Origin: Alphaproteobacteria bacterium
Lineage (GTDB): Bacteria; Pseudomonadota; Alphaproteobacteria; SHVV01
Direction: 5' to 3'
DNA length: 64,000 nt
Assembly: GCA_965261735.1 (NCBI GenBank)
Contig: OZ253470.1
Span: 2,176,001 to 2,240,000 of the forward strand
Position 1 is the first letter of the stretch. The number at the start of each line of letters is the position of its first letter. Positions 1-28,407 of the stretch are shown one piece after another. Under the pieces are notes generated by a model. It was given only the letters and a program-made list of their open reading frames with translations, was not told where the DNA came from and did not search any database. The translations under genes were made by a program, and so were the position numbers.

Positions 1-339
1 CAGCAACAGCCCGAGCACGAGCGCGATCGCGTGTGCCGGCAGGTAGTTGTAGATCGCGGCGCCGATGATGATGGCCGGCAGGCCGCTGATCATGATGGCG
101 CGATAGGTGGGCCAATCGATGGCGTGGCGAAAAACCCAGGCGCGGCTCGTATGATTGATGAGCAGCACCACCGACATGACCGGCACCAAGGCCTTGACGC
201 CGATGACGGGCGCGAGCACCAGGGCCAGGAGAATGCCGCCGGCGAACCCGCTGACGCTCTGGAAGATTGACGCCGCGAAGGCCGCCAGCGCGACGATCAG
301 CAACGCCAGCGGCGCGATATCGGCCAGGAATGCGGGCAT
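1..339 (-). CDS. TauE/SafE (TSUP) family membrane transporter, 3' end runs off the window
   Basis: Manual translation from ATG at 339: MPAFLADIAPLALLIVALAAFAASIFQSVSGFAGGILL...SRAWVFRHAIDW; hydrophobic with the G-F-x-G-G motif. Confidence 0.75.
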   Translation of the reverse strand, partial: MPAFLADIAPLALLIVALAAFAASIFQSVSGFAGGILLALVLAPVIGVKALVPVMSVVLLINHTSRAWVFRHAIDWPTYRAIMISGLPAIIIGAAIYNYLPAHAIALVLGLLL

Positions 340-399
340 CGTGAATCTAGCCGTCAGTAGCCCGTGCCCGTTGGGGCCCGGCGTGCGCGCCGGCGCTGG

Positions 400-10325: not shown

Positions 10326-11411
10326 CTAGATCGACGGGCCCTTGTCGCGCACCAGCGGGAGGGTCGAGCAGATCGGGCCGCGGCCGGCGATGCGGCCGCC
10401 CTCGAAGCCCATCTCGAAAACCTCGATGCCGCGCTTCTCGATCTGCTCGCGCGTCTTCGGGTTGCCTGCGGTCACGATCACCTTGCCGGGTTCGGTCGCG
10501 AGCAGGTTGCAGGCATAGTTCTGGCACTCGTCGAGCGGGACCTCGATCAAGTCGAGGTCCTTCTTCTTGAGGTAGCGCAACGTGTCGTAGCCGAGCCCGG
10601 CCGGGTAGACCACACCGAGCCCCTCGGCGACCATGCTGAAGACCATGTCGAGGTGGTAGAAGCCGCCGGCGCCCCCCGCGCGCTGGCTCCAGTTGTTCAA
10701 ATAGCCGGGCAGGTGGGCGACGTGGATTTCCTCGACCCCAGCCATGCGCAGGATCGGCTCGACCTCCGCGATCCCCTCCATGCTGGTGCGCAGCCCGCAG
10801 CCGATCATGACGTGCGTCTCGTCGAGCCAGACGACGTTGCCGGCCTCGAAGACCGAGCCCGGGCCATGGACCATGTAGAGAATCGGGCAGCCGATCTCCA
10901 TCAGCCGCTGCGCGTGCACCTTCTCGAGCCCACGCTTGGACGCTATGCCGGGGCGGCCGACGAGCGCGCCGCCGTTGAGGATGACGGGCTCGCGTGGGCC
11001 ATCAAGCGCGATCAGCTCGGTGTAAGTGCCGCGCACCGATTCGGGCGCGTTGAGCGAGACGACCTCGATCCCCTCGCGCTCCAGGATCGCCACAAGCGAC
11101 TCGTAGTTGCGGATCATCGCGCCGAGGTCGGGCAGCCCCGCCGGCCAGCCGAAGAAGGCGGGGTCCTCCGCGACGACGGGTGCCTGAATGGCACCCGAGG
11201 TGGGCTTTTGGACCATGACGGCGCGCAGGCGCCCGAGCTCGCTTTGCGCACCCCAGCGCCGCCCCCAGGTCGCCTCGAGCTCGTCCATGTAGTCGATGTC
11301 GAACAGGGGCTGCGGCGGCTTGCCCTTCTCGTAGAGCGGAATGCGGGCGAGCTCGTCCGCGGGCGAGAGGCGCGCTTCCCGGGCGACGGGCTCGATGGCT
11401 TCAACACTCAT
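10326..11411 (-). CDS. Pentein (amidinotransferase/arginine deiminase/DDAH-like) paralog 1
   Basis: SELGRLRAVMV, GPRE, FEAGN, LRTS, FYHLDM, YACN, GRGPICSTLPL with catalytic-type Cys. Confidence 0.88.
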   Translation of the reverse strand: MSVEAIEPVAREARLSPADELARIPLYEKGKPPQPLFDIDYMDELEATWGRRWGAQSELGRLRAVMVQKPTSGAIQAPVVAEDPAFFGWPAGLPDLGAMIRNYESLVAILEREGIEVVSLNAPESVRGTYTELIALDGPREPVILNGGALVGRPGIASKRGLEKVHAQRLMEIGCPILYMVHGPGSVFEAGNVVWLDETHVMIGCGLRTSMEGIAEVEPILRMAGVEEIHVAHLPGYLNNWSQRAGGAGGFYHLDMVFSMVAEGLGVVYPAGLGYDTLRYLKKKDLDLIEVPLDECQNYACNLLATEPGKVIVTAGNPKTREQIEKRGIEVFEMGFEGGRIAGRGPICSTLPLVRDKGPSI

Positions 11412-11437
11412 GGTCGTACTCCTTCGACTCGCGGCGC

Positions 11438-12535
11438 TCAGAGGGTCGGTCCGCTGTCGCGGATCAGCGGCAGGATCGAGCAATCCGGCCCGCGGCCGCT
11501 CACCTCGCCGCCCTCGAAGCTCATCTCGATCACCTCGATGCCGCGCTTCTCCAGCTGCTCGCGGGTGCGGTGGTTGCCGGGCGTCGCGATGATGCGGCCG
11601 GGGCGAATCGGGGTGACGTTGCAGGCGTAGTTCTGCGCCTCCTCGATCGGCACCTCGATGAGGTCGACGTTCATCTTCTTGAGGTAACGGATGGTGTCGT
11701 AGCCCACGCCCGCCGGGTAGATGACCGCGACTCCCTCATCGACCATGTTGAACACCATGTCGAGGTGGTAGAAGCCGCCCGGGCCGCCGGCGCGCTCGGT
11801 CTGGAAGTTGAGGTAGCCCGGCAGATGCGCGACGTGGAACTCCTCGATGCCGACCGAGCGCAGGACGGGGATGACCTCCTCGATGCCTTCCAAGCTGGTG
11901 CGCACGCTGCAGCCCAGGATGACGTGCGTCTCGTCGAGGAAGATCAGGTTGCCGCCGCCCTCGAAGGCCGAACCCTTGCCGTGCACCGTGTAGAGGATGG
12001 GGCAGCCGATCTCCATCAGGCGCTGCGCGATAATCTTGTTGATGTCGCGCTTGGACGCGATGGCGGTGCGGCCGATGAGCGCGCCGCCATTGAGGATGAT
12101 CGCCTCGTGCGGCGCATCGTGGCCGATGAGCTCGCTCGTATAGACGCCGGGGAGCGATTCGGGCGCGTTGAGGTAGAAGACCTCGACCCCTTCGTCGGCG
12201 AAGATCTTGACCAGCGACTCGTGGTTCTTGCGCATCGAGTCGATGTTGGGCAGGCCCTTGGGCCAGCCGAAATAGATCGGGTCCTCCCTGACGATCGGCG
12301 AGTCGACCTGGCCCCACGTCGGCGGCTGCAGCATAACAGCGCGGAGCTGGCCGATCTGGGTCTGGGCGCCCCACTTGCGGCCCCACGTCGCCTCGAGCTC
12401 GTCGAGGTAGTCGATGTCGAACAGCGGCTGCGGCGGTTTACCCTTCTCATAGTGCGGAATGCGGGCGAGCTCGTCCGCGGGCGACAGCCGGGCGGTGCCC
12501 GACGCCTTGGTTCTCGGCTTCTCGTCGATCGTCAT
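11438..12535 (-). CDS. Pentein paralog 2
   Basis: APHE, FEGGGN, VRTS, FYHLDM, GRGPDCSILPL. Confidence 0.88.
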   Translation of the reverse strand: MTIDEKPRTKASGTARLSPADELARIPHYEKGKPPQPLFDIDYLDELEATWGRKWGAQTQIGQLRAVMLQPPTWGQVDSPIVREDPIYFGWPKGLPNIDSMRKNHESLVKIFADEGVEVFYLNAPESLPGVYTSELIGHDAPHEAIILNGGALIGRTAIASKRDINKIIAQRLMEIGCPILYTVHGKGSAFEGGGNLIFLDETHVILGCSVRTSLEGIEEVIPVLRSVGIEEFHVAHLPGYLNFQTERAGGPGGFYHLDMVFNMVDEGVAVIYPAGVGYDTIRYLKKMNVDLIEVPIEEAQNYACNVTPIRPGRIIATPGNHRTREQLEKRGIEVIEMSFEGGEVSGRGPDCSILPLIRDSGPTL

Positions 12536-12571
12536 GGGGTTCTCCGCCGTGATGGGGTGGGACGCGAGCGA

Positions 12572-12598
12572 TTAGATAGAAGGTCCGCGGTCGCGCAC
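12572..12598 (-). repeat. Orphan duplicate of a pentein gene 3' end (VRDRGPSI*)
   Basis: Minus strand GTG CGC GAC CGC GGA CCT TCT ATC TAA, 2 bp downstream of the paralog 3 end GTC CGC GAC CGC GGA CCT TCG ATT TAA. Confidence 0.85.
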
Positions 12599-12600
12599 GC

Positions 12601-13689
12601 TTAAATCGAAGGTCCGCGGTCGCGGACCAGGGGTAGCGTCTTGCACACGGGCCCGCGGCCGCTCACGCGCCCGCCCTCGAACGCGACCTCGTGGACGTTA
12701 AGGCCGCGCTTCTCCAGTGCCGCGCGCGTGAGCGGATTGCCCTCGGTGAGGACGACCTCGCCGGGCTCGATCACCAAGAGATTGCAGGCGTAGTTCTGCA
12801 CCTCCTCGAGCGGCACCTCGATGAGGTCGAGGTCCTTCTTCTTGAGGTAACGGATGGTGTCGTAGCCGACTCCGGCGGGGTAGATGACGGCTAGTCCCTC
12901 GCCCGCCATGCCGAACACCATGTCGAGGTGGTAGAAGCCGCCGGGCCCGCCGGCACGCTCGGACTGCACATTGAGGTAGCCCGGCATGTGGGCGATGTGG
13001 ATCTCCTCGACGCCCGCCATGCGCAGCACGGGCTCGACCTCGCGGATGCCCTCCATGCCGGTGCGCACGCCGCAGCCGATCATGGCGTGGCGCTCGTCGA
13101 GCCACACGAGGTTGCCGGGTTCGAACAGCGAGCCCCTCACCATGTGGAGGATGGGGCAGCCGATCTCCATCAGGCGCTGGGCGATAAGCCTCTCGAGCCC
13201 GCGCTTGGACGCCGTCGCCGGCCGGCCGACGAGGGCGCCGCCGTTCAGCACCGTCGCCTCGCGGGTGCCGTCGATGCCGGTGAGCTCGGTATAGGCGCCC
13301 TTGATCGTCTCCGGCGAGTTCAGGTAGACGAGCTCGACGCCCGCGCCCTCGAGAATCGCCATCAGCGACTCGTGGTTGCGCATCATCGCGTCGAGATTGG
13401 CGAGCCCCTTGGGGAAGATGAAGAAGCCGGGGTCTTCCTTGATCACCGGCGAGGCGACCTGGCCCCAGGTCGGCGGCTGGACGAGAACGCTGCGCAGCTT
13501 GCCAAGCTCGGTCTGGGCGCCCCAGCGACGGCCCCATGTCGCCTCGAGCTCATCCATATAGTCGATGTCGAAGAGCGGCTGCGGCGGTTTGCCCTTTTCA
13601 TAAAGCGGGATGCGGGCGAGCTCGTCGGCGGGCGACAGCCGGGCTTTACCCGATTGCTTCGCCTTGGGCTCCTTCTCGTCGATGGTCAT
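12601..13689 (-). CDS. Pentein paralog 3
   Basis: GTRE, FEPGN, VRTG, FYHLDM, GRGPVCKTLPL. Confidence 0.88.
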   Translation of the reverse strand: MTIDEKEPKAKQSGKARLSPADELARIPLYEKGKPPQPLFDIDYMDELEATWGRRWGAQTELGKLRSVLVQPPTWGQVASPVIKEDPGFFIFPKGLANLDAMMRNHESLMAILEGAGVELVYLNSPETIKGAYTELTGIDGTREATVLNGGALVGRPATASKRGLERLIAQRLMEIGCPILHMVRGSLFEPGNLVWLDERHAMIGCGVRTGMEGIREVEPVLRMAGVEEIHIAHMPGYLNVQSERAGGPGGFYHLDMVFGMAGEGLAVIYPAGVGYDTIRYLKKKDLDLIEVPLEEVQNYACNLLVIEPGEVVLTEGNPLTRAALEKRGLNVHEVAFEGGRVSGRGPVCKTLPLVRDRGPSI

Positions 13690-13702
13690 GGTGCCCTCCG
13701 GT

Positions 13703-14791
13703 TCAGATCGACGGCCCCCTGTCGCGGACCAAGGGGAGCGTCGAGCAGGCGGGCCCGCGGCCGCTCACGTTGCCGCCCTCGAAGGCCATCTCCAGCACCT
13801 CGATGCCGCGCTTCTCGAGCCTCTCCCGGGTGCGCGGGCAACCCGCCGTCATGATGATGCGCCCGGGCCGAATGGCGCACACGTTGCACGCATAATTCTG
13901 CACCTCCTCGAGCGGCACCTCGATGAGCTCGATGTTCTTCTTCTGCAGGTAGCGGATCGTCTCGTAGCCGACGCCGGCCGGGTAGATCAGCGCCAGGCCC
14001 TCGGCCACCATGTTGAACACCATGTCGAGGTGATAGAAGCCGCCGGGACCGCCGGCGCGCTCGGTCTGGAAGTTCAAATAGCCGGGTAGCTGGGCGACGT
14101 GGAACTCCTCGACGCCGACCGAGCGGTAAATCGGAATGACCTCGTCGATGCCCTCCTGGCTCACGCGCACGCTGGTCGCCAGCATGACGTGCGTCTCGTC
14201 GAGCCACACCAGGTTGCCGCCGCTCTCGATGCCGGAGCCCTTGCCGTGCACGGTGTAGAGAATGGGGCAGCCGATTTCCATCAGCCGTTGGGCGAACAGC
14301 TTGTTGATGTCGCGCTTCGACGCAATGGCGGTGCGGCCGATAAGGGCGCCGCCGTCGAGGATGATGACCTCGCGCGGGGCGTCGTAGCCGATCAGCTCGG
14401 TATAGACGCCGCGCATCGAGTCGGGGGCGTTGGCGTCCACCACCTCGACACCCTCGTCCTCGAGGATCTTGACCAGCGACGCGTGATTGCGGTGCATGGC
14501 GTCGAGGTCGGGCAGGCCCTTGGGCAGGCTGAAGAAGACCGGGTCCTCCTTGACCACCGGCGAGGCCACCTGGCCCCAGGTGGTGCGCTGCACCATGACG
14601 CTACGCAATTGCCCGAGCTCGGTCTGCGCCCCCCAGCGCCGCCCCCAGGTCGCCTCGAGCTCGTCCATGTAGTCGATGTCGAACAGCGGCTGCGGCGGCT
14701 TGCCCTTCTCGTAGAGTGGGATGCGCGCGAGCTCTTCCGCGGGCGAGGGGCGCGCGCCCTCCTTCTCCCGCTTCTCACCCTTGGCCGTCAT
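13703..14791 (-). CDS. Pentein paralog 4
   Basis: APRE, IESGGN, VRVS, FYHLDM, GRGPACSTLPL. Confidence 0.88.
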   Translation of the reverse strand: MTAKGEKREKEGARPSPAEELARIPLYEKGKPPQPLFDIDYMDELEATWGRRWGAQTELGQLRSVMVQRTTWGQVASPVVKEDPVFFSLPKGLPDLDAMHRNHASLVKILEDEGVEVVDANAPDSMRGVYTELIGYDAPREVIILDGGALIGRTAIASKRDINKLFAQRLMEIGCPILYTVHGKGSGIESGGNLVWLDETHVMLATSVRVSQEGIDEVIPIYRSVGVEEFHVAQLPGYLNFQTERAGGPGGFYHLDMVFNMVAEGLALIYPAGVGYETIRYLQKKNIELIEVPLEEVQNYACNVCAIRPGRIIMTAGCPRTRERLEKRGIEVLEMAFEGGNVSGRGPACSTLPLVRDRGPSI

Positions 14792-14822
14792 AATCGGCCT
14801 CCCTTCGATGGCCCCGCATCCG

Positions 14823-15953
14823 TCAGATGGAGGGCCCCTTGTCGCGTATCAGGGGGAGCGTGGAGCAGGCCGGCCCGCGGCCACTCACCTTACCGCCCTC
14901 GAAGCTCATCTCCACCGTCTCGATGCCGCGCTTCTCCAACTGCTCGCGCGTGCGAGGATTGCCCGCCGTCACGATCAAGCGGCCCGGCCGCAGGGCGAGC
15001 ACGTTGCAGGCGTAGTTCTGCATCTCCTCGTAGGGCACCTCGATGAGGTCGAGGCCCTTCTTCTTGAGGTAGCGGACGGTGTCGTAGCCGACGCCCGCGG
15101 GATAGATCAGCGCCACCCCCTCGGCCGCCATGTTGAACACCATGTCGAGGTGGTAGAACCCACCAGGCCCGCCGGCGCGCTCGGTCCAATGGTTGAGGTA
15201 GCCCGGCAGGTGGGCGACGTGAATCTCCTCGACCCCGACCGAGTTCAGGATCGGGCTGATCTCCTCGATTCCTTCCATGCTGGTGCGAATGCTGGCGCCC
15301 AGCATGACGTGGGTTTCGTCGAGCCAGATCAGGTTGCCGCCGCCCTCGAAGGCGGAGCCCTTGCCGTGCATCGTGTACAGGATGGGGCAGCCGATCTCCA
15401 TCAGGCGCTGGGCCAGGATGCGCTCGATGCCACGCTTGGCGGCGACGGCGGGCCGGCCGATGAGCGCCCCACCGTTGGCGACCACGACTTCGCGCGGTCC
15501 GTCGTAGCCGTAAAGCACGGTGTAGGCGCCGCGCGCGAATTCCGGCGCGTTGAGGTAGATGACCTCGACCCCCTCCGCCTTCATCAGGTTGACGAGCGAT
15601 TCGTGGTTGCGCAGCATCGCGGCCATGTCGGGCAGGCCCTTGGGCCAGCCGAAGTAGATCGGGTCTTCAAGCACCACCGGGGACTCGACCGGGCCGCGCG
15701 TGATGGGCTGAACCATGACGCTGCGCAGGCGCCCGAGCTCGGTCTGGGCGCCCCACTTGCGCCCCCAGGTCGCCTCGAGCTCGTCCATATAGTCGATGTC
15801 GAACAGGGGCTGCGGCGGCTTGCCCTTCTCGTAGAGCGGGATGCGCGCGAGCTCCTCGGCCGGCGAGAGGCGTTTGGCCGTGGACTTGGATTTGGGTTCG
15901 GATTTGGGCTTGGACTTCGACCTGGCGGCTTGGCTTACGTCTTCGATAGCCAT
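14823..15953 (-). CDS. Pentein paralog 5 (Lys/Ser-rich N-terminal extension)
   Basis: SKSKPKSEPKSKSTAK leader; GPRE, FEGGGN, IRTS, FYHLDM, GRGPACSTLPL. Confidence 0.88.
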   Translation of the reverse strand: MAIEDVSQAARSKSKPKSEPKSKSTAKRLSPAEELARIPLYEKGKPPQPLFDIDYMDELEATWGRKWGAQTELGRLRSVMVQPITRGPVESPVVLEDPIYFGWPKGLPDMAAMLRNHESLVNLMKAEGVEVIYLNAPEFARGAYTVLYGYDGPREVVVANGGALIGRPAVAAKRGIERILAQRLMEIGCPILYTMHGKGSAFEGGGNLIWLDETHVMLGASIRTSMEGIEEISPILNSVGVEEIHVAHLPGYLNHWTERAGGPGGFYHLDMVFNMAAEGVALIYPAGVGYDTVRYLKKKGLDLIEVPYEEMQNYACNVLALRPGRLIVTAGNPRTREQLEKRGIETVEMSFEGGKVSGRGPACSTLPLIRDKGPSI

Positions 15954-16083
15954 CGCACTTCTCCCTCACTGCGGCCGGCGCGGTGCCACGGGGGCCCGTC
16001 GCCGATCCCGCGCATCGTCTTGGTCTACAGCGTCGGGGGTGAGGCCCGCGCCTCCTTCGGCGCCACCTCACCCCCCAGGACAG

Positions 16084-17097
16084 CTACATCATACCGAGGT
16101 CTTTGATGACTTCGTCGACGAGCGAGCGATCGACGATCTCCTCATACGTGATCGGCCGCGAGATCGCGCCGAGGCTGTGGTAGGTCTTGGACGAGAACTC
16201 CGTCACCTCGCGCCCGAGCCCACCATTGGTGCCCCAGACCCCCTGATCGTTGAGGGAGGGGATGATCTGTTTGATCAGAGCCATGTCGACGGTGGGTGTC
16301 CGATTCTTCATGATTTCCGCGGCTTTGTCGGGGTCCTTCTGGATCAGCCGCACGCCCTCGATTCCGCCTCTGACGAAGATCTTGAGAGACTTGCGAAGGG
16401 CGGGATCGGCGACACTCTTCTTGGTCGCGACCGAGTAGAGGTACCCGAGGCCGGGGAACTCCTTGGCGATCGAGGCGACCTCGATCAAACCCTGCTGCAT
16501 GCCGATGGCCGTGAAGAAGGTGTCGACCATCGTCACCTCGACCTTCTTCGCCACCACCGCCTGCATGCGCGAGCTCATGCCACCGACGGACAGGAACGTG
16601 GCGTCCCTCGGATCGAGCCCGTACTTACGCATGACCATCTTGGGGATTTCGGCCGACATGCCGCCGGTGCTGAACGAGGCCCATTTCTTGTCGCCCAGGT
16701 CCTTGATCGAGCTGCCGACCTCGGGCCGGGTGATGACGTGGTAATCGGTGACCGGCTGCCATGACGAGATAACCGTGACCGGCGCGCCCTTGATAATTCC
16801 GTTCATCACTGTGTTGGGGCCGAGGACCGTGACATCGGCGTCGCCCGCAATCAGGACGCGCAGGGAGTTGGCGTCACCGGTGACGACCTTCTCCTCGACC
16901 TCCAAACCCCACTCCTTGTACCAGCCGAGGTCCTGGGCAACGAAGAACGGAAGCAGGTACGTCGCCGGGCCCGTCGGCATGACAAAGCGGAGCTTGTCGG
17001 CGGCGGCCGCTGGTCCGGCGCCGGCCACCACCATCATCACGGCGGCGAGGGCGAGGCCCGCCACGAGTCGAGTCGCAAAGCTTCTCAGACGTGTCAT
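16084..17097 (-). CDS. ABC transporter substrate-binding protein, NMT1/THI5/SsuA/TauA-like
   Basis: Signal peptide; LPFFVAQDLGWYKEWGLEVE, LIAGDADV, SIKDLGDK, EEIVDRSLVDEV. Confidence 0.88.
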   Translation of the reverse strand: MTRLRSFATRLVAGLALAAVMMVVAGAGPAAAADKLRFVMPTGPATYLLPFFVAQDLGWYKEWGLEVEEKVVTGDANSLRVLIAGDADVTVLGPNTVMNGIIKGAPVTVISSWQPVTDYHVITRPEVGSSIKDLGDKKWASFSTGGMSAEIPKMVMRKYGLDPRDATFLSVGGMSSRMQAVVAKKVEVTMVDTFFTAIGMQQGLIEVASIAKEFPGLGYLYSVATKKSVADPALRKSLKIFVRGGIEGVRLIQKDPDKAAEIMKNRTPTVDMALIKQIIPSLNDQGVWGTNGGLGREVTEFSSKTYHSLGAISRPITYEEIVDRSLVDEVIKDLGMM

Positions 17098-17269
17098 TAA
17101 GAGTCCTCCCGTTAGGCTCGTTCGGCCGGCGGCCGATGCGCCATTTCTAATTGTGCGTCGCCGCGTTCTCGTGGCGGCGCCAAAACCGTCATCTCGGACA
17201 CAGTGAGCGGATGATCAGTTGGTCAACCTTACCCGCATTGCAACCCGGCGTCACCCCGCCGCGCTGGCC

Positions 17270-18517
17270 TCAGGAGAGAAACGCCTCCTCGAAGGGAAAC
17301 TTGGTCAGGATCTCGACGCCCCCCTCGGTGACCAGGACCTGTTCCTCGAGCTTGACGCCCTCGCGCCCGCCCTCGGCGCCGATATAGCTCTCGATGCACA
17401 GGACCATGTTCTCCTCGATAAGCCCGTCGTACCCGGACGCGTCCCAGTCCTGCAGGTGATAGATCGCGGGATACTCGTCGCACATGCCGACCCCGTGGGC
17501 GACGACCGAATAGCGGTTGGCCTCATATCCCTTCGGGTAGGTCCACGCCTTGTCCGCGACCTCGCGAAAGCTCGTGCCGGGCTTGATCAGCGCCAGGTTG
17601 TGGGCGAGCTCGTCCAAAGCCAGCTTGTAGAGGTCGCGCTGTGCCGTGCTCGGCTTGCCGGGGCCGCAGTAGAAGGTGCGCGAGACGTCGGCGCAGTAGC
17701 CGAACGGCCCGATCATGTCGGTATCGAACGCGACGAGCTCACCGGCGCGTATGACCCGGTCGCTGCATTCCTGCTGCCACGGGTTGGTGCGGTCGCCGGA
17801 CGCGAACAGGCGGCCGTCGATCCAGTCGCCGCCCATGGCGATGTTGGTCTGATGCAGGAGCGCCCATAGCTCGTTCTCGGTCACGCCCGGCCTCAGGGCC
17901 TCGCGCATGCGGGCGATGCCCACTTCGGCGGCTGCGATGGAGAAGTTCATGCACAGGATTTCCTCCGCCGACTTGATGGCGCGCGCATGCTCGAGCGGCT
18001 CCTGGGCGTCGACCATCTCGAGGCCGCGCTCGGCGAGCAGGGCTGGCGTCCTGAGGTCGTGGCGGTCGACGGCGAGGCGCCGGTTGCCGCCGCAGTGGCT
18101 CGCCACCAGCTCGGCGACCGTATCGGCCCAACGGCCGAGCAGCTCTTCGACCCGTGGTCCGGCGAAAAAGAAGTTGAGCGGCAGCGAGGGGCGGAACTCG
18201 GCGATGGTTTCGTTCTGCTTGGACGCCTGCCGCTCGGGATGCGAATCGAAGACGAAGACCGGTCCCTCGGCCGGAACGAACGCGTAGCGGCCGAGCATGT
18301 GGAGCTGGAACACGGGGTGATTGCGGGCGCCCGTCGCATAGCGGACGTTGACCGGATCGAACAGGACACAGGCGCCGTAGTCGCGCGCTATAAGCTGCTC
18401 GCGCACGCGCGCCAGCCGGTGGGCGCGCAGCGCCACCATGTCGATCCCGGCCTCGATATCGGATGCGCGATTGATCGGAGTCGTCGCCGCGGCGCGGAGG
18501 ATGTCGGCTTCGGGCAT
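17270..18517 (-). CDS. M24 family metallo-enzyme (Xaa-Pro peptidase / DddP-like)
   Basis: LFDPVNVRYATG, FDTDMIGPFGYCADVSRT, HGVGMCDEYP, CIESYIG, GVKLEEQVLVT (D/D/D/H/E/E metal ligands). Confidence 0.88.
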   Translation of the reverse strand: MPEADILRAAATTPINRASDIEAGIDMVALRAHRLARVREQLIARDYGACVLFDPVNVRYATGARNHPVFQLHMLGRYAFVPAEGPVFVFDSHPERQASKQNETIAEFRPSLPLNFFFAGPRVEELLGRWADTVAELVASHCGGNRRLAVDRHDLRTPALLAERGLEMVDAQEPLEHARAIKSAEEILCMNFSIAAAEVGIARMREALRPGVTENELWALLHQTNIAMGGDWIDGRLFASGDRTNPWQQECSDRVIRAGELVAFDTDMIGPFGYCADVSRTFYCGPGKPSTAQRDLYKLALDELAHNLALIKPGTSFREVADKAWTYPKGYEANRYSVVAHGVGMCDEYPAIYHLQDWDASGYDGLIEENMVLCIESYIGAEGGREGVKLEEQVLVTEGGVEILTKFPFEEAFLS

Positions 18518-18698
18518 GGCGTGCCTCCCTGGCGTGCGTTGCCGTTGTCGGATGCGGGGGTCGCTTCCGAGGTGTCTCGCCTTATCGCACATTTCCCGGC
18601 GCGCGGCGTGCACCGGAGCGCGGACCGCAGGAATCGCCTTTTTCGCGGCCCCGTACCGACATAGGATGAGGAAAAGGTAGTGGAGGAAGGACAAACCC

Positions 18699-19784
18699 AT
18701 GACGACGACAGAGGTCAGGCTGGCGCGGCGCGAGGACGAGCTGTCCCCCGCGCAGGAACTCGAGCGCATTCCGCTCTACGAGAAGGGCAAGCCGCCGCAA
18801 CCGCTCTTCGATATCGACTATATGGACGAGCTCGAGGCGACGTGGGGCCGCAAGTGGGGCGCCCAGACGGAGCTCGGACAGCTTCGCGCGGTCATGATGC
18901 AGCCGCCGACGATGGGGCAGACCGACACGCCCCTGTACCGCGAGGATCCGGTCTACTTCATGTGGCCCAAGGGCGTGCCCGACTTCGAGGCGATGAAGCG
19001 CAACCACCAGTCGCTGGCCGATCTCCTCAAGGGCGAGGGTGTCGAAATCGTCTACCTCAACGCGCCCGATGCCGTGCGCGGTACCTACACCTTCATCAAG
19101 GGCTACGATGCACCGCGCGAGCCGGTGATCCTGAACGGCGGCGCGCTCGTCTGCCGCAACGCCATCGGGCCGCAGCGCGGCATCAACAAGCTCATCGCGA
19201 CCCGCCTGATGGAGATCGGCTGCCCCATCCTGTACATGGCCCACGGCAAGGGTTCGTCGATCACCGGCGGCAATTTCGTCTGGCTCGACGAGCGTCACGT
19301 GATGATCGGGTGCAGCGTGCACACGAGCATGGAAGGCATCGAGGAGGTCACGCCAATCCTGCACAGGGCGGGCGTCGAGGAGATTCACGTGGCGCACATG
19401 CCGGGTTATCTCAACCAGATGACCGAGCGCGCCGGGGGTGCCGGGGGCTTCTACCACCTCGACATGATCTTCCAGATGGTCGACCAGGGCGTGGCCGTGA
19501 TCTACCCGGCGGGCGTCGGCTACGACACCATCCGCTACCTCAAGAAGCGGAACATCGATCTCATCGAGATTCCGCTCGAGGAGGTGCAGAACTATGCCTG
19601 CAACCTGCTGCCGATCCGGCCCGGGCGCGTGGTGCTGACCGCCGGCAACCCGCGCACCCGCGAGGCGCTGGAGAAGCGCGGAGTCGAGGTTCTCGAGATG
19701 ACGTTCGACGGCGGCCGCCTGAGCGGCCGTGGACCCGTGTGCTCGACCTTACCGCTGGTGCGTGACGTGGGTCCGTCGATCTGA
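18699..19784 (+). CDS. Pentein paralog 6 (divergent operon)
   Basis: Same N-terminal arm; APRE, ITGGN (no Glu), VHTS (no Arg), FYHLDM, GRGPVCSTLPL. Confidence 0.88.
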   Translation: MTTTEVRLARREDELSPAQELERIPLYEKGKPPQPLFDIDYMDELEATWGRKWGAQTELGQLRAVMMQPPTMGQTDTPLYREDPVYFMWPKGVPDFEAMKRNHQSLADLLKGEGVEIVYLNAPDAVRGTYTFIKGYDAPREPVILNGGALVCRNAIGPQRGINKLIATRLMEIGCPILYMAHGKGSSITGGNFVWLDERHVMIGCSVHTSMEGIEEVTPILHRAGVEEIHVAHMPGYLNQMTERAGGAGGFYHLDMIFQMVDQGVAVIYPAGVGYDTIRYLKKRNIDLIEIPLEEVQNYACNLLPIRPGRVVLTAGNPRTREALEKRGVEVLEMTFDGGRLSGRGPVCSTLPLVRDVGPSI

Positions 19785-19862
19785 AGCTCTCGCAAGGTGA
19801 GGGCGACCAAGACCGGCGCGGCCCGTTCGCTGGGCCGCGCCCCACGGGGGAGCGCTACGGCC

Positions 19863-20648
19863 ATGAAGGGTGTCATCAACTACGTCTTCGAGCGACCCAC
19901 GGCCCACCGCACGATCGTCGTCATCATCTTTTTCATCTTCTGGGAGTGGGCCGCGCGCAACGCCAATCCGCTCTTCATCTCCTATCCGACGGCGATCTTT
20001 GTCGCGTTCTGGGAGCTGCTGCTCAACGGCGAGCTCATCCGGGCGTTCCTCGCCAGCATGGTGCCGTTCGCGATCGGCATGGCGATCTCCATCGCCGGCG
20101 GCATCGCCCTCGGTGTCGTCATCGGGCAGTGGTGGTTCTTCGAGCGCACGCTCGATCCCTTCGTCAACGCGCTCTACGCGATCCCTCGGGTCGCGCTGGT
20201 ACCGCTCATCATGCTGTGGGCCGGCCTGGAAACCACGGGCAAGGTCACGATTCTGGTGTCCATCGCCATCTTTCCGGTCCTCATCAACACCTACTCCGGC
20301 ATCAAGGACGTGCGCGGCTCCTTCCTCGAGATCGGCAAGGCCTTCGGCGCCACGGAACGCGAGATCTTCGTCAAGATCACGATGCCGGCGGCGGTTCCCT
20401 TCGTCATGGCCGGCATCCGCATGTCGGTCGGGCTCGCCATCATCGGCATGGTCGTCGCCGAGTTCTTCACCGCCATCACCGGGCTCGGCGGTATGATCGT
20501 CGAATACGCTAACGTCTTTGCCACCGACAGGCTGTTCGTGCCGATCATCCTCATCGGCCTCATGGGCGTCGGCCTGACCGAGCTGGTGATGTACATCGAG
20601 CGCCGGCTCTCGAAGTGGCGCACCCTCGAGCGCGACCGCATCGGGTAG
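19863..20648 (+). CDS. ABC transporter permease, NitT/TauT (SsuC/TauC) type
   Basis: YAIPRVALVPL, INTYSGI, EIGKAFGA EAA-like loop, VVAEFF..GLGG. Confidence 0.92.
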   Translation: MKGVINYVFERPTAHRTIVVIIFFIFWEWAARNANPLFISYPTAIFVAFWELLLNGELIRAFLASMVPFAIGMAISIAGGIALGVVIGQWWFFERTLDPFVNALYAIPRVALVPLIMLWAGLETTGKVTILVSIAIFPVLINTYSGIKDVRGSFLEIGKAFGATEREIFVKITMPAAVPFVMAGIRMSVGLAIIGMVVAEFFTAITGLGGMIVEYANVFATDRLFVPIILIGLMGVGLTELVMYIERRLSKWRTLERDRIG

Positions 20649-20666: not shown

Positions 20667-21125
20667 CTACAGGATCGTCGAGGGCGAGAACTCGAGGCGC
20701 CGCGTGTCCATGCGCACCGTGCGCTCGGCGAGCCGCGGCGCCGCGCCATCCAGCGCTATGTCATCGTGGTAGGTGACCACGGCAAAGAGGCGGCTCGTCC
20801 CTTGCGGATCGGTGTGATAGACGATCACCGAGCTCTCCATCCTCACCCGCGCCTCTGAGCGCTCGATCTCCCGGCAGCGGCCGGCGTGGCGGCGGTAAGT
20901 ACCGGGCACGACGAGGTGGCGCGGCAGGTCCTCGAAGCGGACGCGAAGCTGCTCCAGGCTCTGGTCGAGCCACACCATCTCCTTGCCGATCTCGTCGCTG
21001 TAGGCGGTGATGCGGTAGCGGAAGTCGGGCGCGCACAGGCCGAGCCAGGACTCGTAGGCCTCGGCGTCGAGGAGGGCGCAGGAGGCGTAGACGAGGTCGA
21101 CCAGCGCGGCCCGATCGGTGCTCAC
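20667..21125 (-). CDS. Ring-hydroxylating oxygenase beta subunit (MsmB-like, NTF2 fold)
   Basis: GTG start overlapping the alpha stop; LLDAEAYESWL, YRITAYSDEIGKEMVWLD, RTVRMDTR. Confidence 0.8.
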   Translation of the reverse strand: MSTDRAALVDLVYASCALLDAEAYESWLGLCAPDFRYRITAYSDEIGKEMVWLDQSLEQLRVRFEDLPRHLVVPGTYRRHAGRCREIERSEARVRMESSVIVYHTDPQGTSRLFAVVTYHDDIALDGAAPRLAERTVRMDTRRLEFSPSTIL

Positions 21126-22330
21126 GCCGCCCCCGCGGCCCCCGCGGCGGCGAGCGGATCGCGCGCCGAGCGTCCCATGCGGCGCTCCCACTCGGCGTAG
21201 TACTGGCGCAGGTTGGCCTCGTCGTGGGCCATCAGGTTTTCCTCGCGCGCGATCACGCTGTAGCTCGCGCTGCCGTAGGTCGCCTCCTGCTGGATAATGG
21301 CGGCGGCGTTGTCCTCGGGCACGTTCCAGCCGAAGGGCCCCCACAGCGTGTTGTGGTCGTTGTAGCGGGCGAGGCGCGCCGCCTCGGGCTCGCCCTTGAC
21401 GCCGATGCCGCGAAACTGCACCAGTGTCCGATCGACGCCGTGCGGCGTCATGGTGTCGATGCGCATGGCCGAATCGCGCATGATCATCGCCGTGTCGGGC
21501 CACACGTCGACGACTCGGAACTCGCGCGGCCCGAGCCCCGGCAGCGGCACTCCTTCGCGCTCCTTCTTCCAGCCCGGCTGGGCGTCGTACTGAACGATCA
21601 GGGGCCCGAGCAGCGTCGCGTGCCCGCGCCGGTAGAACTTCCAGGTGCGCTCGTGGTAGCCGGCCGCGCGGATGGTCTGGCGGCGATTAATGCTGTGCAT
21701 GAACGCGTGGTAGGACTCGCAGTTCACCTCCTGCAGGTGCTTCCAGTTCGCGTCCACGATCTGCTCGTGATAGTGGTAGACCTCGAGCGGCTCGGTGCCG
21801 AGAACAGCGGCCGCGTTCTCCAGCCCATCGCCCAGGAAATCATCGATGGGTTCGGCGTCATCGTCGAAATTGATGAACACCAGGCCCAGGCGTACCGCCG
21901 TCCGGATCTCGCGCAGGCCCATGTCCTCGGCGCGGCAGCCGGCGCTCTCGTAGGCTTCGTTGCGCGTCATCGAGACGCAGTTCCCTTGCGCATCGTACAC
22001 CCATAGGTGGAACACGCAGGTGAAGCGCGTGGCGTTCCCGTGCAGGCCCTGGACGACCTTGGCGCCGCGGTGCGAGCAGGTGTTCTGGAAGGTGCGCACC
22101 GCGCCGTCCTCGCCGCGCACGACCAGGATGGGAATGCGCGCTACCTCCATCGTGCGGTAGTCGCCGGGCTCGGCGACCTCGCTCTCGTGACAGACGAACT
22201 TCCACACCTTGTGCCAGATGTTCTCGATTTCCGCCTCGAAGATCGACTCGTCGGTGTAGATGCGATTGTCGAGGAAGTGGGTGGGGGGAAGCTGCGGGGC
22301 GCGCTCCCACTCCCGGGCCGTGCGCGACAT
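21122..22330 (-). CDS. Rieske oxygenase alpha subunit (MsmA-like)
   Basis: CSH-X17-CVFH Rieske motif; NWK..ESYHAFMH and a C-terminal ED for the mononuclear iron. Confidence 0.9.
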   Translation of the reverse strand: MSRTAREWERAPQLPPTHFLDNRIYTDESIFEAEIENIWHKVWKFVCHESEVAEPGDYRTMEVARIPILVVRGEDGAVRTFQNTCSHRGAKVVQGLHGNATRFTCVFHLWVYDAQGNCVSMTRNEAYESAGCRAEDMGLREIRTAVRLGLVFINFDDDAEPIDDFLGDGLENAAAVLGTEPLEVYHYHEQIVDANWKHLQEVNCESYHAFMHSINRRQTIRAAGYHERTWKFYRRGHATLLGPLIVQYDAQPGWKKEREGVPLPGLGPREFRVVDVWPDTAMIMRDSAMRIDTMTPHGVDRTLVQFRGIGVKGEPEAARLARYNDHNTLWGPFGWNVPEDNAAAIIQQEATYGSASYSVIAREENLMAHDEANLRQYYAEWERRMGRSARDPLAAAGAAGAA

Positions 22331-24550: not shown

Positions 24551-25486
24551 TCATGCCGCCAGAATCCCTTTGCATCGATCTCCTTGCCGTTGTTGTTGCG
24601 CCTGTGGGGATGTGGGCAAGGCGCGTAGCGGCTTGTCCATCATATCCACAGGCGGGGCGCCGCGGTAGGCCTCGGCCGGCGTTTCCCCCCCGAGCGCCGA
24701 GTGCGGCCTCTCGGTGTTGTAGAAGTCGATCCACTCGCCGATGACGCGCCGGGCCTCGAAGCCGTCGGCGAGCTCGCGCAGATAGACGGCCTCGTATTTG
24801 AGCGAGCGCCACAGCCGCTCAATGAAGATGTTGTCCAGGCACCGGCCCCTGCCGTCCATCGAGATCCGGATGCCGGTCTCCCGCAAGCGCCCGGTGAAGG
24901 CGAAGCCGGTGAACTGGCTGCCCTGGTCGGTATTGAAGATCTCCGGCGTGCCATGGCGGGCCAGCGCCTCGTCGAGCGCGTCTGTGCAGAAGCCCGCATC
25001 CAGGGTGTTCGACAGACGCCAAGCCAGCACATGCCGGTTGGCCCAGTCCATGATCGCCACCAGGTAAAGAAAGCCGCGCCGCACCGGGATGTAGGTGATG
25101 TCGGCGCACCAGACATGGTTCGCCCGCTCGATCGTCAAGCCTCTGAGCAGATAGGGGTAGACCCGGTGCTCGGGATGCGGATCGCTGGTGCGCGGCGCCC
25201 GATAGATCGCCTGAAGCCCCATCAGGCGCATCAGACGACCGGCCCGGCGACGACCGACGCGCACGCCCTCGCGGCGTAGATGACGGACCATCTGACGGGC
25301 GCCGTAGAACGGATACTTCAGGAACAACTCATCAATGCGCCGCATCAGCGCCAGGGTCTCCGGGCTCTCGCCCTTGGGCGTGTAATAGAGCGAGGAGCGT
25401 CCGATCGACAGCAAACGGCATTGACGGCTCAAGCTCAGCGCCGGGTGAGCGCGTATCACCATCGTTCGCCTCTCGGCCCGGCTCAT
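24551..25486 (-). CDS. IS3 transposase OrfB (DDE)
   Basis: WCADITYIP, IFNTDQGSQF, DNIFIERLWRSLKYE. Confidence 0.95.
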   Translation of the reverse strand: MSRAERRTMVIRAHPALSLSRQCRLLSIGRSSLYYTPKGESPETLALMRRIDELFLKYPFYGARQMVRHLRREGVRVGRRRAGRLMRLMGLQAIYRAPRTSDPHPEHRVYPYLLRGLTIERANHVWCADITYIPVRRGFLYLVAIMDWANRHVLAWRLSNTLDAGFCTDALDEALARHGTPEIFNTDQGSQFTGFAFTGRLRETGIRISMDGRGRCLDNIFIERLWRSLKYEAVYLRELADGFEARRVIGEWIDFYNTERPHSALGGETPAEAYRGAPPVDMMDKPLRALPTSPQAQQQRQGDRCKGILAA

Positions 25487-25764
25487 CGACCGGACCCTCG
25501 AGACAAAAAATCCCGCTCCACCGTCAACTCGCCGATCTTCGCGTGAAGATCACGGATCTCGCTCTCATGGTCCCGACGGCGGCGCTCGCCCCCGTTCGAA
25601 AACACTTCGCCAAGACCATCGATCGCCTGCCGCTTCCATGTGCTCACTTGGTTCGGATGAACCTGGTGCTGCGAGGCGATCTCCTGAAGCGTCCGGTCGC
25701 CACGAAGCGCCTCAAGCGCGATCTTCGCCTTCAGCTCCCCGGAAAACCTGCGTCTCTTACTCAT
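25483..25764 (-). CDS. IS3 transposase OrfA
   Basis: RRRFSGELKAKIALEA HTH, LHAKIGELTVERDFL; T6 slippery run at the 3' end. Confidence 0.93.
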   Translation of the reverse strand: MSKRRRFSGELKAKIALEALRGDRTLQEIASQHQVHPNQVSTWKRQAIDGLGEVFSNGGERRRRDHESEIRDLHAKIGELTVERDFLSRGSGR

Positions 25765-26431
25765 CGCGTATCCCTCCTCAGTCGGCGGAATACACCTTAA
25801 AAACCTGTCCGATTTTCCGGGGCCACCTCAAGGAGACGGGAACCTTGTGGTGAACACCACGGCCTTCCCCACGCGTTCGCCCGCCAACCCAGGTTTCGTC
25901 CACCTCAACATGGTTCTTGGGCTGTCCACCGATCCTGTCTTGGTTGGGCCGCACCATGCCCGAGCGGAGCTTGTGGAGAATTTGAAAGGCCGTCTCGTAG
26001 CGCGAAAGACCAAGTTGCCGCTGAAACTGCACGGCGGACATGCCGGGCGTCTGACTGGCGACCAGATAAGCGGCCCAGAACCAGACGTTCAGCGGAGTGT
26101 GGCTACGCTCCATCACTGTTCCCACCGTCAGCCCGGTGTTCTGGCGGCACTTGCGGCAGCGCAGGACGCCAGGGCGGTTTTCAAAGTGGAACGGCTCTCC
26201 CGCCGTGCCGCAGTGCGGGCAGGCAAAGCCGTCTCCCCAGCGGGCTTTCTCCAGGTAGGCGGCGCAGGCCGCATCATCGGGGAAAAGTCGCTGGAACTCG
26301 GGTAGCGAATGCGGGAATGGGAGATCGGCGCGGTCGAGAACATCCATGGCGCGCTCCCCTATATCCGGTTTGCACCCATTCTAGCCCTAGTGGGTGTGGG
26401 TGTAAACCGGATAGGAAGGTTTGTTTTTAGC

Positions 26432-26824
26432 CTATGAGCGGGCATCCGGGCCGGGGAGGCCCGACCTCCGGCCTCGGGAGCCATCGACGGACTCGGCGAA
26501 GACGAGGTAGCGCAGCGGACCCCCCGGCGTTAGGGCATCGAACGGATAGCACGTCGCAAGGACGAGCCTCCGGCGCGAGCCGATGACGTCAATGCGGACC
26601 CTTCGCGCATCCGCGACTTCGGTCGCCGTCACACGGAAACGGCGCGCGACACCGGTGTGATCCTCGACATAGAGCTCGTCGCCAGTCTGGAGACGTGCCA
26701 GGAAACGGAAATGGGGATCGCGATGCCCCGCGATGAGGCTCGTCCCGGGCTGGTCGGGCAGCGGCGAGCCGTCGACGTGTCCGGGCCCGAAGGCGAGCGT
26801 CCTGCCGCTGCCGCCGGCGAGCAT
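26432..26824 (-). pseudogene. Class GN sortase, 5'-truncated
   Basis: LAFGPGH, IAGHRD.HF, LVLATCYPF, GGPLRY (His/Cys/Arg); no N-terminal anchor. Confidence 0.85.
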
Positions 26825-27069
26825 ACAGATCGGCCAGGACGCTCATCGAAACCTCCGCCGCCGTCGCGCTCGGCCAGTCGACACGAATGTCCGTGAGCAC
26901 CGGGTGCTCGAGCTTGGCCAGCAGGCTCGCCATGCGGTCGCCGACCTCGTGGAGCTCGCCGATGTAGGTGAACGTGCCGCGGCCGGTCTCGGCCGCCTCT
27001 TGCATGAAGTAGCTGTTGGGCGCCGTGCCAATGCCGATCGTAAAGAGGCCCGCGCCGGGCCGTTCGTCG

Positions 27070-28174: not shown

Positions 28175-28407
28175 GTTCGTCGATGAGGCGAAAGAGCGCC
28201 GCCTCGTTGCCGACGGCCCCGTCGGTCAGGAAGACCACCTGCCGGAGGTAGCCTTGCGGAGGCGCGCCCGCGAGCGCCGCCATTAGCGCCGGCGCCATCT
28301 CGGTGCCGCCCGAGGCCGACAGGGCGCGCACGTAGCGCCGTGCGCGGGCGAGTCTCTCCGCCTCGACGGCAAGGGGCTGGGCGAACAGTGCCGAGGTCTC
28401 GTCCGCG

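Follow-up and report, generated by a model that had tools for sequence, protein, structure and literature searches.

Six pentein paralogs encoded in the window, i.e., the whole stretch of 64,000 nucleotides analysed here, share an almost invariant N-terminal arm of 41 residues that is kept constant by purifying selection on the protein and not by homogenisation of the DNA. Sequence comparisons indicate that copies within one genome are under far tighter constraint here than their relatives from other genomes, and structural modelling identifies the arm as the counterpart of the N-terminal extension of the nitrohydrolase NnhA within a small pentein subfamily. That selection has maintained near-identical arms points to possible assembly of the copies with one another. 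We infer both that the arm is swapped in the window penteins and that the swap takes place between different paralogs. The reading that we put first, and judge to be evenly poised, is that paralogs expressed together form mixed oligomers by exchanging their arms, so that one arm has to serve several grooves.

The pentein genes and their common arm

The six genes code for small soluble proteins of a guanidino-group hydrolase family. Five are arranged in tandem (P1 to P5) and the sixth, P6, is divergent (Table 1). All six products score above the gathering threshold of Pfam models PF02274 and PF19420. The P5 to P1 genes lie on one strand with intervals of 13-65 nt, each preceded by its own Shine-Dalgarno sequence. 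RNA-library contigs from two studies, whose libraries may contain DNA, overlap portions of P2, P3, P5 and P6, and one of them (13575-13813) bridges the P4/P3 junction; neither a single transcript nor an expression level can be read from these contigs, and the portions of the cluster lacking them were given no weight. Two other genomes, G001 and G004, each have a single close copy, of which P6 is the ortholog, and the position of P6 ahead of an ABC permease gene is found also in G001.

Table 1. Pentein genes of the window, the segments coding for their arms, and neighbouring genes.
Feature	Position	Strand	Remarks
Pentein paralog P1	10326..11411	-	ORF extends to 11483; ATG at 11411 with GGAG upstream
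P1 arm	11244..11366	-	residues 16-56
Pentein paralog P2	11438..12535	-	Pfam matches
P2 arm	12362..12484	-	residues 18-58
Pentein paralog P3	12601..13689	-	Pfam matches
P3 arm	13513..13635	-	residues 19-59
Pentein paralog P4	13703..14791	-	Pfam matches; copy used for modelling
P4 arm	14624..14746	-	residues 16-56; helix 17-22, extended 23-40, helix 41-49
Pentein paralog P5	14823..15953	-	Pfam matches
P5 arm	15744..15866	-	residues 30-70
NMT1/SsuA-like ABC substrate-binding protein	16084..17097	-	same strand as P5-P1 array, upstream
M24/creatinase-N hydrolase ORF	17270..18769	-	DddP-like; 354.6 bits, below NCBIfam cut-off of 600
Pentein paralog P6	18699..19784	+	Pfam matches; divergently placed
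P6 arm	18744..18866	+	residues 16-56
ABC permease	19797..20648	+	downstream of P6

The arm reads SPA(D/E/Q)EL(A/E)RIP(L/H)YEKGKPPQPLFDIDY(M/L)DELEATWGR(R/K)WGAQ in the six penteins. The original prediction, which had announced a near-identical N-terminal arm in all six that is better conserved than the remainder of the proteins, is borne out by the alignment: 36 of its 41 columns are invariant across P1-P6, against 26 in the runner-up stretch of 41 columns, 48% of the columns outside the arm and 47.7% of those from the arm onward. None of 20,000 shuffles reached 36 invariant columns. The extreme N-termini are variable, as had also been proposed; the residues ahead of the arm diverge strongly (pooled dN 0.55), and this end of the protein is disordered in the P4 model (residues 1-7, pLDDT <50). 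The span first delimited, 11250-18880, encloses all six arms except for six bases. Across the family, one of the two 14-residue stretches with the highest conservation (0.82 in 102 sequences) is DELEATWGRRWGAQ, which forms the second half of the arm and, on this alignment, is a signature of the family. The first half has 32-44% identity to P4 in distant homologs. The subfamily is small, with 43 cluster representatives at E<=1e-30 among 1.84 billion.

Selection on the arm in copies that share a genome

In the six paralogs dS is 0.648 in the arm and 0.609 in the rest of the gene, while dN is 0.04 in the arm versus 0.23 elsewhere (dN/dS of 0.061 and 0.371, respectively). The comparison of paralogs suggested originally gives in this way the outcome of selection, with high dS and low dN in the arm. 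The arms of P1 and P3 have the same protein sequence and yet differ at 16 of 27.7 synonymous sites, which are saturated. The near-saturation of synonymous sites led us to reject conservation of the 5' coding region at the RNA level.

Gene conversion was the other explanation offered at the outset: if the 5' portion of the gene were copied again and again among tandem copies, the arms would stay alike. A same-family tandem pair in this genome (G000:C1:4825331-4827590) does carry a clear conversion-like tract at its 5' end, where conserved residues have a codon identity of 0.79-0.93 within the first ~100 residues and mostly of 0.42-0.75 thereafter, and arm codon identity is modestly high in the arrays of a Chloroflexi metagenome-assembled genome (MAG) (0.562 versus 0.416 expected; core 0.510). 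In the window, however, arm dS matches that of the rest and codon identity at conserved residues approximates independent draws, both in the arm (0.675, expected 0.632) and in the core (0.666, expected 0.591). The arms are identical or nearly so in P1/P3 and P3/P4 in spite of a pS of 0.54-0.58, and a conversion ancient enough for its synonymous traces to be erased should have left time for the protein to drift as well. A low arm dS (0.25) is found in P1-P4, the only such pair of 15. We consider gene conversion, which these results largely refute for this locus, a very improbable source of the constancy of the arm. The alternative first set beside it, a shared assembly arm, is supported by the superposition with NnhA and by the predicted P4/P5 pair presented below.

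The behaviour of the arm differs between copies of this genome ("own") and relatives of other genomes ("foreign"). Among pairs whose cores are about 0.69 identical, the identity of the arms between own copies is 0.943 (n=15), between own and foreign copies 0.823 (n=42) and between foreign copies 0.751 (n=21). On a tree built from the core only, with an exposure of 0.97 versus 1.02 substitutions per site, the arm changed 8 times in own and 35 times in foreign lineages, against 225 and 238 changes of the core (Fisher p = 1.7e-4 for arm versus core). Faster core evolution in the paralogs as the source of their low arm/core ratio is ruled out by these equal core counts and by the core path lengths (0.88 versus 1.02, 0.92 versus 0.78 and 0.72-0.76 versus 0.90).

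The comparison of branch rates was extended to 93 family genes from 73 loci, in which paralogs of the same genome are non-independent samples. On branches that follow duplication within the genome, the window has 3 arm changes versus 31.1 expected at the core rate (ratio 0.10) and the Chloroflexi MAG, with 17 copies, has 37 versus 183.4 (ratio 0.20), while terminal branches with a foreign sister have 167 versus 232.2 (ratio 0.72). As judged from these branch counts, the Chloroflexi MAG shows an independent replicate of the slow-down of the arm after in-genome duplication. The arm of P6 evolved at the core rate (3 changes, 2.8 expected), and so did those of G001 and five other foreign lineages (23 changes, 20.8 expected). 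Single-copy status among the foreign metagenome genes is established for G001 and G004. These single-copy homologs, to which the original prediction attached weight, behave differently: G001 does not keep the arm, whereas G004 has 1 arm change versus 8.3 expected at the core rate and shares its arm sequence with P1 and P3, so constancy is possible without close paralogs in the genome. The arm lies outside the monomer core. Further close-clade arrays were searched for, with 0 of 400 other genomes in the phylum sample giving a match at E<=1e-60; a first metagenome scan found no close-clade arrays, and a second one gave 3 short close-clade contigs with no visible arrays.

An ordinary constraint acting on the whole family, with the arm as a part of the fold equally conserved everywhere, would agree with a motif still recognisable in homologs of 33-47% identity. 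It is contradicted by the own and foreign arm identities and change counts above (8 versus 35), by the divergence of the first half of the arm in distant homologs and by arm identity between genomes, which follows core identity (0.63 at a core identity of 0.6-0.7, n=285, and 0.77 at 0.7-0.8, n=114). We regard this explanation as extremely improbable.

Kinship to NnhA and the predicted complex

The AlphaFold2 model of P4 has a pLDDT of 93.4 overall and of 89-96 in the arm, and adopts the five-fold α/β propeller of penteins (Foldseek probability 1.00, VIA Z of 28-33 to known members). A catalytic cysteine near the carboxyl terminus and a His-x-Asp motif (C349, H254 and D256 in P4 numbering) are invariant in the six proteins; E189 is kept in five and replaced by threonine in P6. 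The best PDB sequence match is NnhA (9azg, E 3.5e-22), followed by DDAH (E 1.4e-5). NnhA is the 2-nitroimidazole nitrohydrolase of Mycobacterium sp. JS330, with structures 9AZG, 9AZH, 9B01 and 9B02; its report describes an N-terminal extension which forms a domain-swapped homodimer, assembled as a trimer of dimers, with the swapped helix close to the active-site lid of the partner (PMC11659421). The model superposes on NnhA from residues 12..362 to 11..370 (VIA Z 37.6, rmsd 2.7 Å over 340 residues), with the N-terminal extension ahead of the propeller aligned residue for residue, and the positions of the catalytic Cys, His, Asp and Asn are retained in the window penteins. Identity to NnhA is, however, only 23-25%, sequence alone does not allow the arm's first half to be aligned (the HMMER alignment begins at query residue 37) and the transporter and M24 surroundings do not point to azomycin. 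The NnhA report holds this type of activity to be unpredictable for homologs below 50% identity (PMC11659421).

The fold is shared with ADI, DDAH, AGAT and ArgZ (Z 28-33), but these align only from model residues 48-62 and the ADI and DDAH chains therefore have no counterpart of the arm. The original placing of the arm ahead of the usual pentein start agrees with where ADI, DDAH and AGAT begin. HsvA, agmatine deiminase and peptidylarginine deiminase chains have lower scores and align from model residues 31-42. According to the description of NnhA, ADI and DDAH do not form such a swapped dimer (PMC11659421). The window penteins stay far below the equivalog cut-offs of arginine deiminase (TIGR01078 arcA, 38.1 and 64.3 bits versus 489.1, covering only the C-terminal ~60 residues) and of dimethylargininase (NF045658 Ddah, 29.7 and 26.4 bits versus 450), in spite of their match to the Pfam families of these enzymes. 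On these grounds of modelling, the arm is the structural counterpart of the NnhA extension. A targeting or signal peptide was dropped as the identity of the arm because it is confidently structured and aligned with the NnhA arm.

Prediction of a complex of P4 with a P5 variant gives a score of 0.90, the best of 3 controls having 0.00. Among solved complexes 116 of 157 attain the mark used, as do 2 of 215 pairs that are mismatched, a calibration that is only rough with self-supplied alignments. The contacts agree at least 99% between runs and the pLDDT of the partner is at least 89. In this predicted two-fold dimer, which resembles the domain-swapped one of NnhA (PMC11659421), the arms lie in trans, each on the other chain, and 26 of the 41 arm residues belong to the interface; arm-to-core pairs include 1:35 with 2:169 and 1:211 with 2:51. 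The run contained two chains, and the predictor does not distinguish a close paralog from self. The NnhA homodimer, a comparable complex, has a solved structure, and the pass may therefore reflect memory of it. Taken with the analogy to NnhA, the prediction supports a role as an assembly arm.

At the predicted contact positions the arm changed twice in own and 22 times in foreign lineages, versus 6 and 13 times at non-contact positions, a direction that fits although the interaction has p = 0.11. The only two substitutions at these predicted positions, L>H and M>L, are those of P2; the three of P6 all fall outside them. The core surface predicted to receive the arm gave no signal of own-specific conservation (30 own versus 38 foreign changes, 195 versus 200 elsewhere, p = 0.43), and 27 of 54 predicted interface columns are invariant among the six versus 103 of 252 elsewhere. 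Changes in the arm and in the core interface were unlinked over 25 branches (Spearman -0.10, p = 0.62); the stem of P0012 and P0013 is the only branch where frequent changes of the arm (6) coincide with a large share at the interface (9/27). Outside the predicted interface, residues 267-286 have 9 own versus 23 foreign changes (p = 0.017, uncorrected).

Mixed oligomers and the other readings of the arm

The mixed-oligomer option of the original prediction fits the comparative data because the arm slows down only after duplication within a genome. The arm, in which an extended stretch links a short first helix to a second one, would cross the two-fold of the dimer and rest on the propeller of the partner. 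Co-expressed paralogs, above all those of the tandem P1-P5, would trade arms within mixed dimers or within rings of larger size; a single arm would therefore have to suit several slightly different grooves and could not drift together with any one of them.

The arm could also be swapped while each paralog pairs only with itself, its conservation being a lineage-specific structural constraint unrelated to mixing. The arm of G004, the lack of special conservation of the predicted groove in this genome, the absence of arm-groove co-variation and the high family-wide conservation of DELEATWGRRWGAQ are in line with homomers. However, this reading leaves unexplained both the slow-down after duplication in two unrelated genomes and the change at core rate in G001 and the five other foreign lineages. 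Paralogs limited to homomers would be able to let arm and groove drift jointly, as foreign lineages apparently do. We view homomers only as unlikely, yet as the most serious of the competing readings.

A common partner, be it a scaffold, regulator, chaperone or protease, could contact all arms and hold them constant. It would likewise slow the arm only where the partner is encoded, and the same data fit it as well as they fit mixed oligomers. It is made quite improbable by the extension of NnhA, consumed in the homodimer as described (PMC11659421), by the prediction that buries 26 arm residues against the partner pentein and by the neighbourhoods: the window cluster and the Chloroflexi arrays are surrounded by components of ABC transport and by hydrolases of the M24 or M20 type, with no non-enzyme gene common to both.

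A bolder form of the mixed-oligomer hypothesis, which we advance tentatively as less probable than arm exchange itself, is that a swapped arm interchangeable among the tandem penteins lets them assemble together, either as mixed dimers or as rings of six members like that of NnhA. A single operon would in that case yield one particle with several differently tuned guanidino-hydrolase sites, and the slow-down would be the footprint of this assembly, arisen independently in the Chloroflexi genome. Some of the 17 Chloroflexi copies are without the substrate-binding Asp and may be non-catalytic partners. NnhA is a single enzyme forming a homo-hexamer (PMC11659421), whereas the window has six paralogs with one common arm. 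Duplication of a self-associating protein is described to give paralogs able to cross-associate, whose evolution is coupled by the shared interface (Marchant et al. 2019, PMC6711710). That work concerns yeast heteromers with binding data; for the bacterial tandem array of the window, cross-association is proposed from rates of change.

The NnhA swap arm was described in 2024 for that single enzyme (PMC11659421), and the findings above extend it to a whole small subfamily, where the rate of change of the arm falls three- to seven-fold when copies occur in the same genome. If mixing is true, this would be a bacterial case of paralog heteromers limiting sequence evolution, and several substrate specificities would be packed into one particle. 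If it is false, arm conservation of the type found in G004 still needs explaining.

The arm as an extension of the pentein fold

The original prediction described a near-invariant N-terminal arm in all six penteins, behind variable extreme N-termini. Both observations are borne out in these paralogs, five of which stand in tandem (P1 to P5) and one divergently (P6). In a six-way alignment 36 of the 41 arm columns are identical, whereas the runner-up among 41-column stretches has 26, and 20,000 shuffles never gave 36; from the arm onward 47.7% of columns are invariant. The residues ahead of the arm have a pooled dN of 0.55.

By sequence, the closest protein of known structure is the 2-nitroimidazole nitrohydrolase NnhA (PDB 9azg; E 3.5e-22), followed by a DDAH at 1.4e-5. 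P4 was modeled with AlphaFold2 from 102 homologs (pLDDT 93.4 overall, 89-96 in the arm); the model folds the arm into a helix (residues 17-22), an extended segment (23-40) and a second helix (41-49). NnhA also ranks first for this model in Foldseek, and VIA-align places model residues 12..362 onto NnhA 11..370 (Z 37.6, rmsd 2.7 Å over 340 residues). In contrast, alignment of ADI, DDAH, AGAT, ArgZ and other penteins to the model begins only at residues 48-62, a few weaker VIA-align matches starting at 31-42; the arm thus lies ahead of the usual pentein start, as proposed. According to the NnhA paper (PMC11659421), the N-terminal extension contacts the neighbouring protomer extensively within a domain-swapped homodimer, three such dimers make up a ring, a swapped helix lies close to the active-site lid of the partner, and ADI and DDAH lack an arm of this kind. 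The structural match and this swapped dimer together identify the modeled arm as equivalent to an established swap arm, outside the monomer core.

An arm in trans is supported by an ESMFold2 co-fold of P4 with P0003, which differs from P5 by one residue. The pair scored 0.90 (runs 0.89, 0.90 and 0.90; best of three controls 0.00), a result that may reflect the similar complex already solved. In calibration, 116 of 157 solved complexes but only 2 of 215 mismatched pairs attained this mark, counts that apply only roughly since custom alignments were supplied. Contacts agree by at least 99% between runs and partner pLDDT is at least 89. Of the 41 arm residues, 26 are predicted to contact the core of the other chain near 85-88, 155-158, 182 and 211-213, a surface that we call the groove, and residues 176-187 of both chains are joined by symmetric strand pairing. 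Self and close paralog are indistinguishable in this prediction, which places hetero-association outside its reach.

Arm evolution in the window and in the family

Local gene conversion had been offered as another source of arm conservation, and it is not supported for the six window genes. Nei-Gojobori estimates pooled over the 15 paralog pairs give dS 0.648, dN 0.040 and dN/dS 0.061 for the arm, and 0.609, 0.226 and 0.371 for everything else in the gene; the arm is the same at the protein level in P1 and P3, with 16 synonymous differences in 27.7 synonymous sites. Since GC3 is about 0.9 and synonymous sites saturate early, codon identity at conserved residues was compared with independent draws from the codon usage of these genes. 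It is 0.685 in the arm (expected 0.614) and 0.640 in the rest (0.595), or, with 33 arm columns, 0.675 (0.632) in the arm and 0.666 (0.591) in the core. P1-P4 is the sole pair to hint at an old exchange (arm dS 0.25). The DNA of the arm has drifted as far as the remainder of the gene, and the arm is kept in the window by selection at the protein level, not by conversion.

Conversion does occur elsewhere in the family, judging from sequence. Outside the window, at G000:C1:4825331-4828888, the same genome carries three tandem distant members (L008, L009, L011) that share about 30% identity with P4. In two of these, whose cores are 0.68 identical, the arms do not differ and the first ~100 residues show a codon identity of 0.79-0.93, against mostly 0.42-0.75 beyond; this is a 5' conversion tract, with the N-terminal ~90 residues identical and codon identity high. 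Their orthologs are tandem pairs in G001 and G004, genomes with a single close copy of the window penteins. Orthologs of this clade share 0.89-0.96 of the core and just 0.56-0.82 of the arm; within-genome paralogs share 0.66-0.68 and 0.88-1.00. Within-genome arm homogeneity therefore recurs, via selection in the window and partly via conversion in this clade.

Single-copy homologs, whose equal arm conservation would have counted against the original prediction, differ. The close copy of G004 has an unchanged arm, that of G001 does not: the P6 arm is nearer to that of P4 (38/41, core about 0.70) than to its G001 ortholog (34/41, core 0.86). By sequence comparison, arm conservation is not this high everywhere. 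Among 14-residue stretches family-wide (102 sequences), conservation is highest in GCPILYTVHGKGSG (0.85) and next highest in the second half of the arm, DELEATWGRRWGAQ (0.82); the first half of the arm has only 32-44% identity to P4 in distant homologs. The subfamily is small: a search of 1.84 billion gives 43 representatives at E<=1e-30, rising to 270 at 1e-10 and to 1004 at 1e-3. The close clade (support 100/100) includes orthologs from other genomes; P6 clusters with the single copies of G001 and G004 and P3 with the foreign homolog P0006, so the duplications predate those splits. G001 keeps the order of substrate-binding protein, P6 ortholog and permease; the array is absent. At core identity ~0.69, arm identity is 0.943 among the window copies (own-own, n=15 pairs), 0.823 own-foreign (n=42) and 0.751 foreign-foreign (n=21).

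Arm changes were counted by parsimony on a core-only tree of 20 rows. They sum to 8 on own versus 35 on foreign branches (Fisher p = 1.7e-4), at core exposures of 0.97 versus 1.02 substitutions per site and 225 versus 238 core changes. The 26 predicted interface positions changed 2 versus 22 times, the other 15 arm positions 6 versus 13 times. The sole core stretch with an own-specific slow-down is P4 residues 267-286 (about 13934-13993, minus strand; 9 versus 23 changes, p = 0.017 uncorrected), outside the predicted interface.

Arm changes and their expectation at the core rate (first eight rows, 20-row tree; last four, quick core-only tree of 93 family genes)
Branches	Arm changes	Expected	Ratio
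P1	0	7.3	
P3	0	4.7	
P5	0	9.5	
P4	1	5.2	
P2	3	7.0	
P6	3	2.8	
Six foreign terminals without G004, pooled	23	20.8	
G004	1	8.3	
After in-genome duplication, MAG	37	183.4	0.20
After in-genome duplication, window	3	31.1	0.10
Terminal with foreign sister	167	232.2	0.72
Internal, several genomes	183	302.2	0.61

The 93 genes come from 73 loci found in a scan of species-representative genomes, and include 17 copies in four loci (L021, L028, L037, L046) of a Chloroflexi MAG. Faster core evolution is ruled out as the cause of the low arm ratio by similar core path lengths from shared ancestors (in-genome versus foreign 0.88 vs 1.02, 0.92 vs 0.78 and 0.72-0.76 vs 0.90). Many identical-arm pairs of the MAG are near synonymous saturation, as in the L037 pair with arm identity 1.00 at codon identity 0.54 (core 0.65 and 0.38). 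Pooled arm codon identity in the MAG is 0.562, a modest excess over the expected 0.416 (core 0.510), and copying seems recent among the three type-A members of L028.

Arm identity by core identity (33 arm columns; 4034 between-genome and 152 within-genome pairs)
Core identity	Between genomes	Within window	Within MAG
0.5-0.6	0.51 (n=240)	none	0.78 (n=39)
0.6-0.7	0.63 (n=285)	0.97 (n=11)	0.90 (n=7)
0.7-0.8	0.77 (n=114)	0.95 (n=4)	0.91 (n=6)

Possible mixed assembly of the paralogs

The arm is under protein-level selection, which strengthens greatly where a genome holds several close copies. An exchange of arms between subunits of different paralogs would be the simplest mechanism: an arm required to fit several grooves could not drift with any single one, and in a homomer-only lineage arm and groove could change jointly. 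We give such mixed assembly about even chances. Against it, the arm of the single close copy of G004 is unchanged, and the other 8 of 9 family members of that genome are distant; the P6 arm changes at the core rate, though solely outside predicted contacts; no arm-groove co-variation was seen; and own copies show no extra conservation of the predicted groove (30 versus 38 foreign changes, elsewhere 195 versus 200; p = 0.43). An asymmetric constraint, one key for many locks, could explain the groove result post hoc.

Genomic context and putative role

Features of the pentein cluster and its surroundings
Feature	Position	Strand	Remarks
P5, P4, P3, P2, P1	15953 down to 10326	minus	head-to-tail array, intergenic gaps 13-65 nt
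NMT1/SsuA-like substrate-binding protein	16084..17097	minus	same strand as array, upstream of P5-P1
M24/creatinase-N hydrolase ORF	17270..18769	minus	same strand as array, upstream of P5-P1
P6	18699..19784		divergent from array; ABC permease downstream
Rieske ring-hydroxylating oxygenase, alpha and beta subunits	20667-22330		adjoin cluster
Insertion-sequence patch	24551-29701		a few kb from cluster; rve integrase, two IS1595-type genes (one truncated), Mutator-family transposase

All six penteins of the window exceed the gathering scores of Pfam PF02274 and PF19420, and all stay far below the cut-offs of the NCBIfam arginine deiminase and dimethylargininase models. Each starts at an ATG with a GGAG-type site upstream, which for P1 is the ATG at 11411 rather than the start of the longer ORF. 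Against the model of DddP, a DMSP lyase, the M24/creatinase-N protein scores 354.6 bits (cut-off 600), which makes it a relative, not a member; its ORF overlaps the start of P6 on the opposite strand, so the true start is probably further inside. The P6 orthologs of G001 and G004 likewise have Rieske-like matches as neighbours (L018 8771-9346 and 12912-13490; L019 13512-14105). RNA-library contigs from two studies match parts of P2, P3, P5, P6 and the binding-protein and M24 genes, weak evidence of expression. Coverage is best over the binding-protein gene (16067-17203) in all four runs, with two differences common to the contigs at 16798 and 16984.

In the MAG arrays, the family copies are interspersed with SBP_bac_5 binding proteins, Opp-like permeases and M20 hydrolases. 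L028 shows two arm types in the order A-B-A-B-A, which would fit the duplication of an A/B pair as a unit. An E-H-D-N-C pattern at five checked positions is kept in 78 of the 93 family genes; all 15 deviants are MAG copies or belong to the P6 clade. Nine of the 17 MAG copies (in L028, L037 and L046) have V, T, R or C instead of the Asp of His-x-Asp (P4 position 256), and could have changed specificity or be non-catalytic partners. The P6 clade (P6 and its L018 and L020 orthologs) has Thr or Ser where HMMER aligns the Glu of the NnhA AMEPG motif, a Glu kept in P1-P5. The make-up of the window cluster, ABC uptake parts with an M24 hydrolase and an adjoining Rieske oxygenase, fits, together with the MAG context, a role in importing and degrading guanidino or amidino compounds, with copies that differ in specificity.
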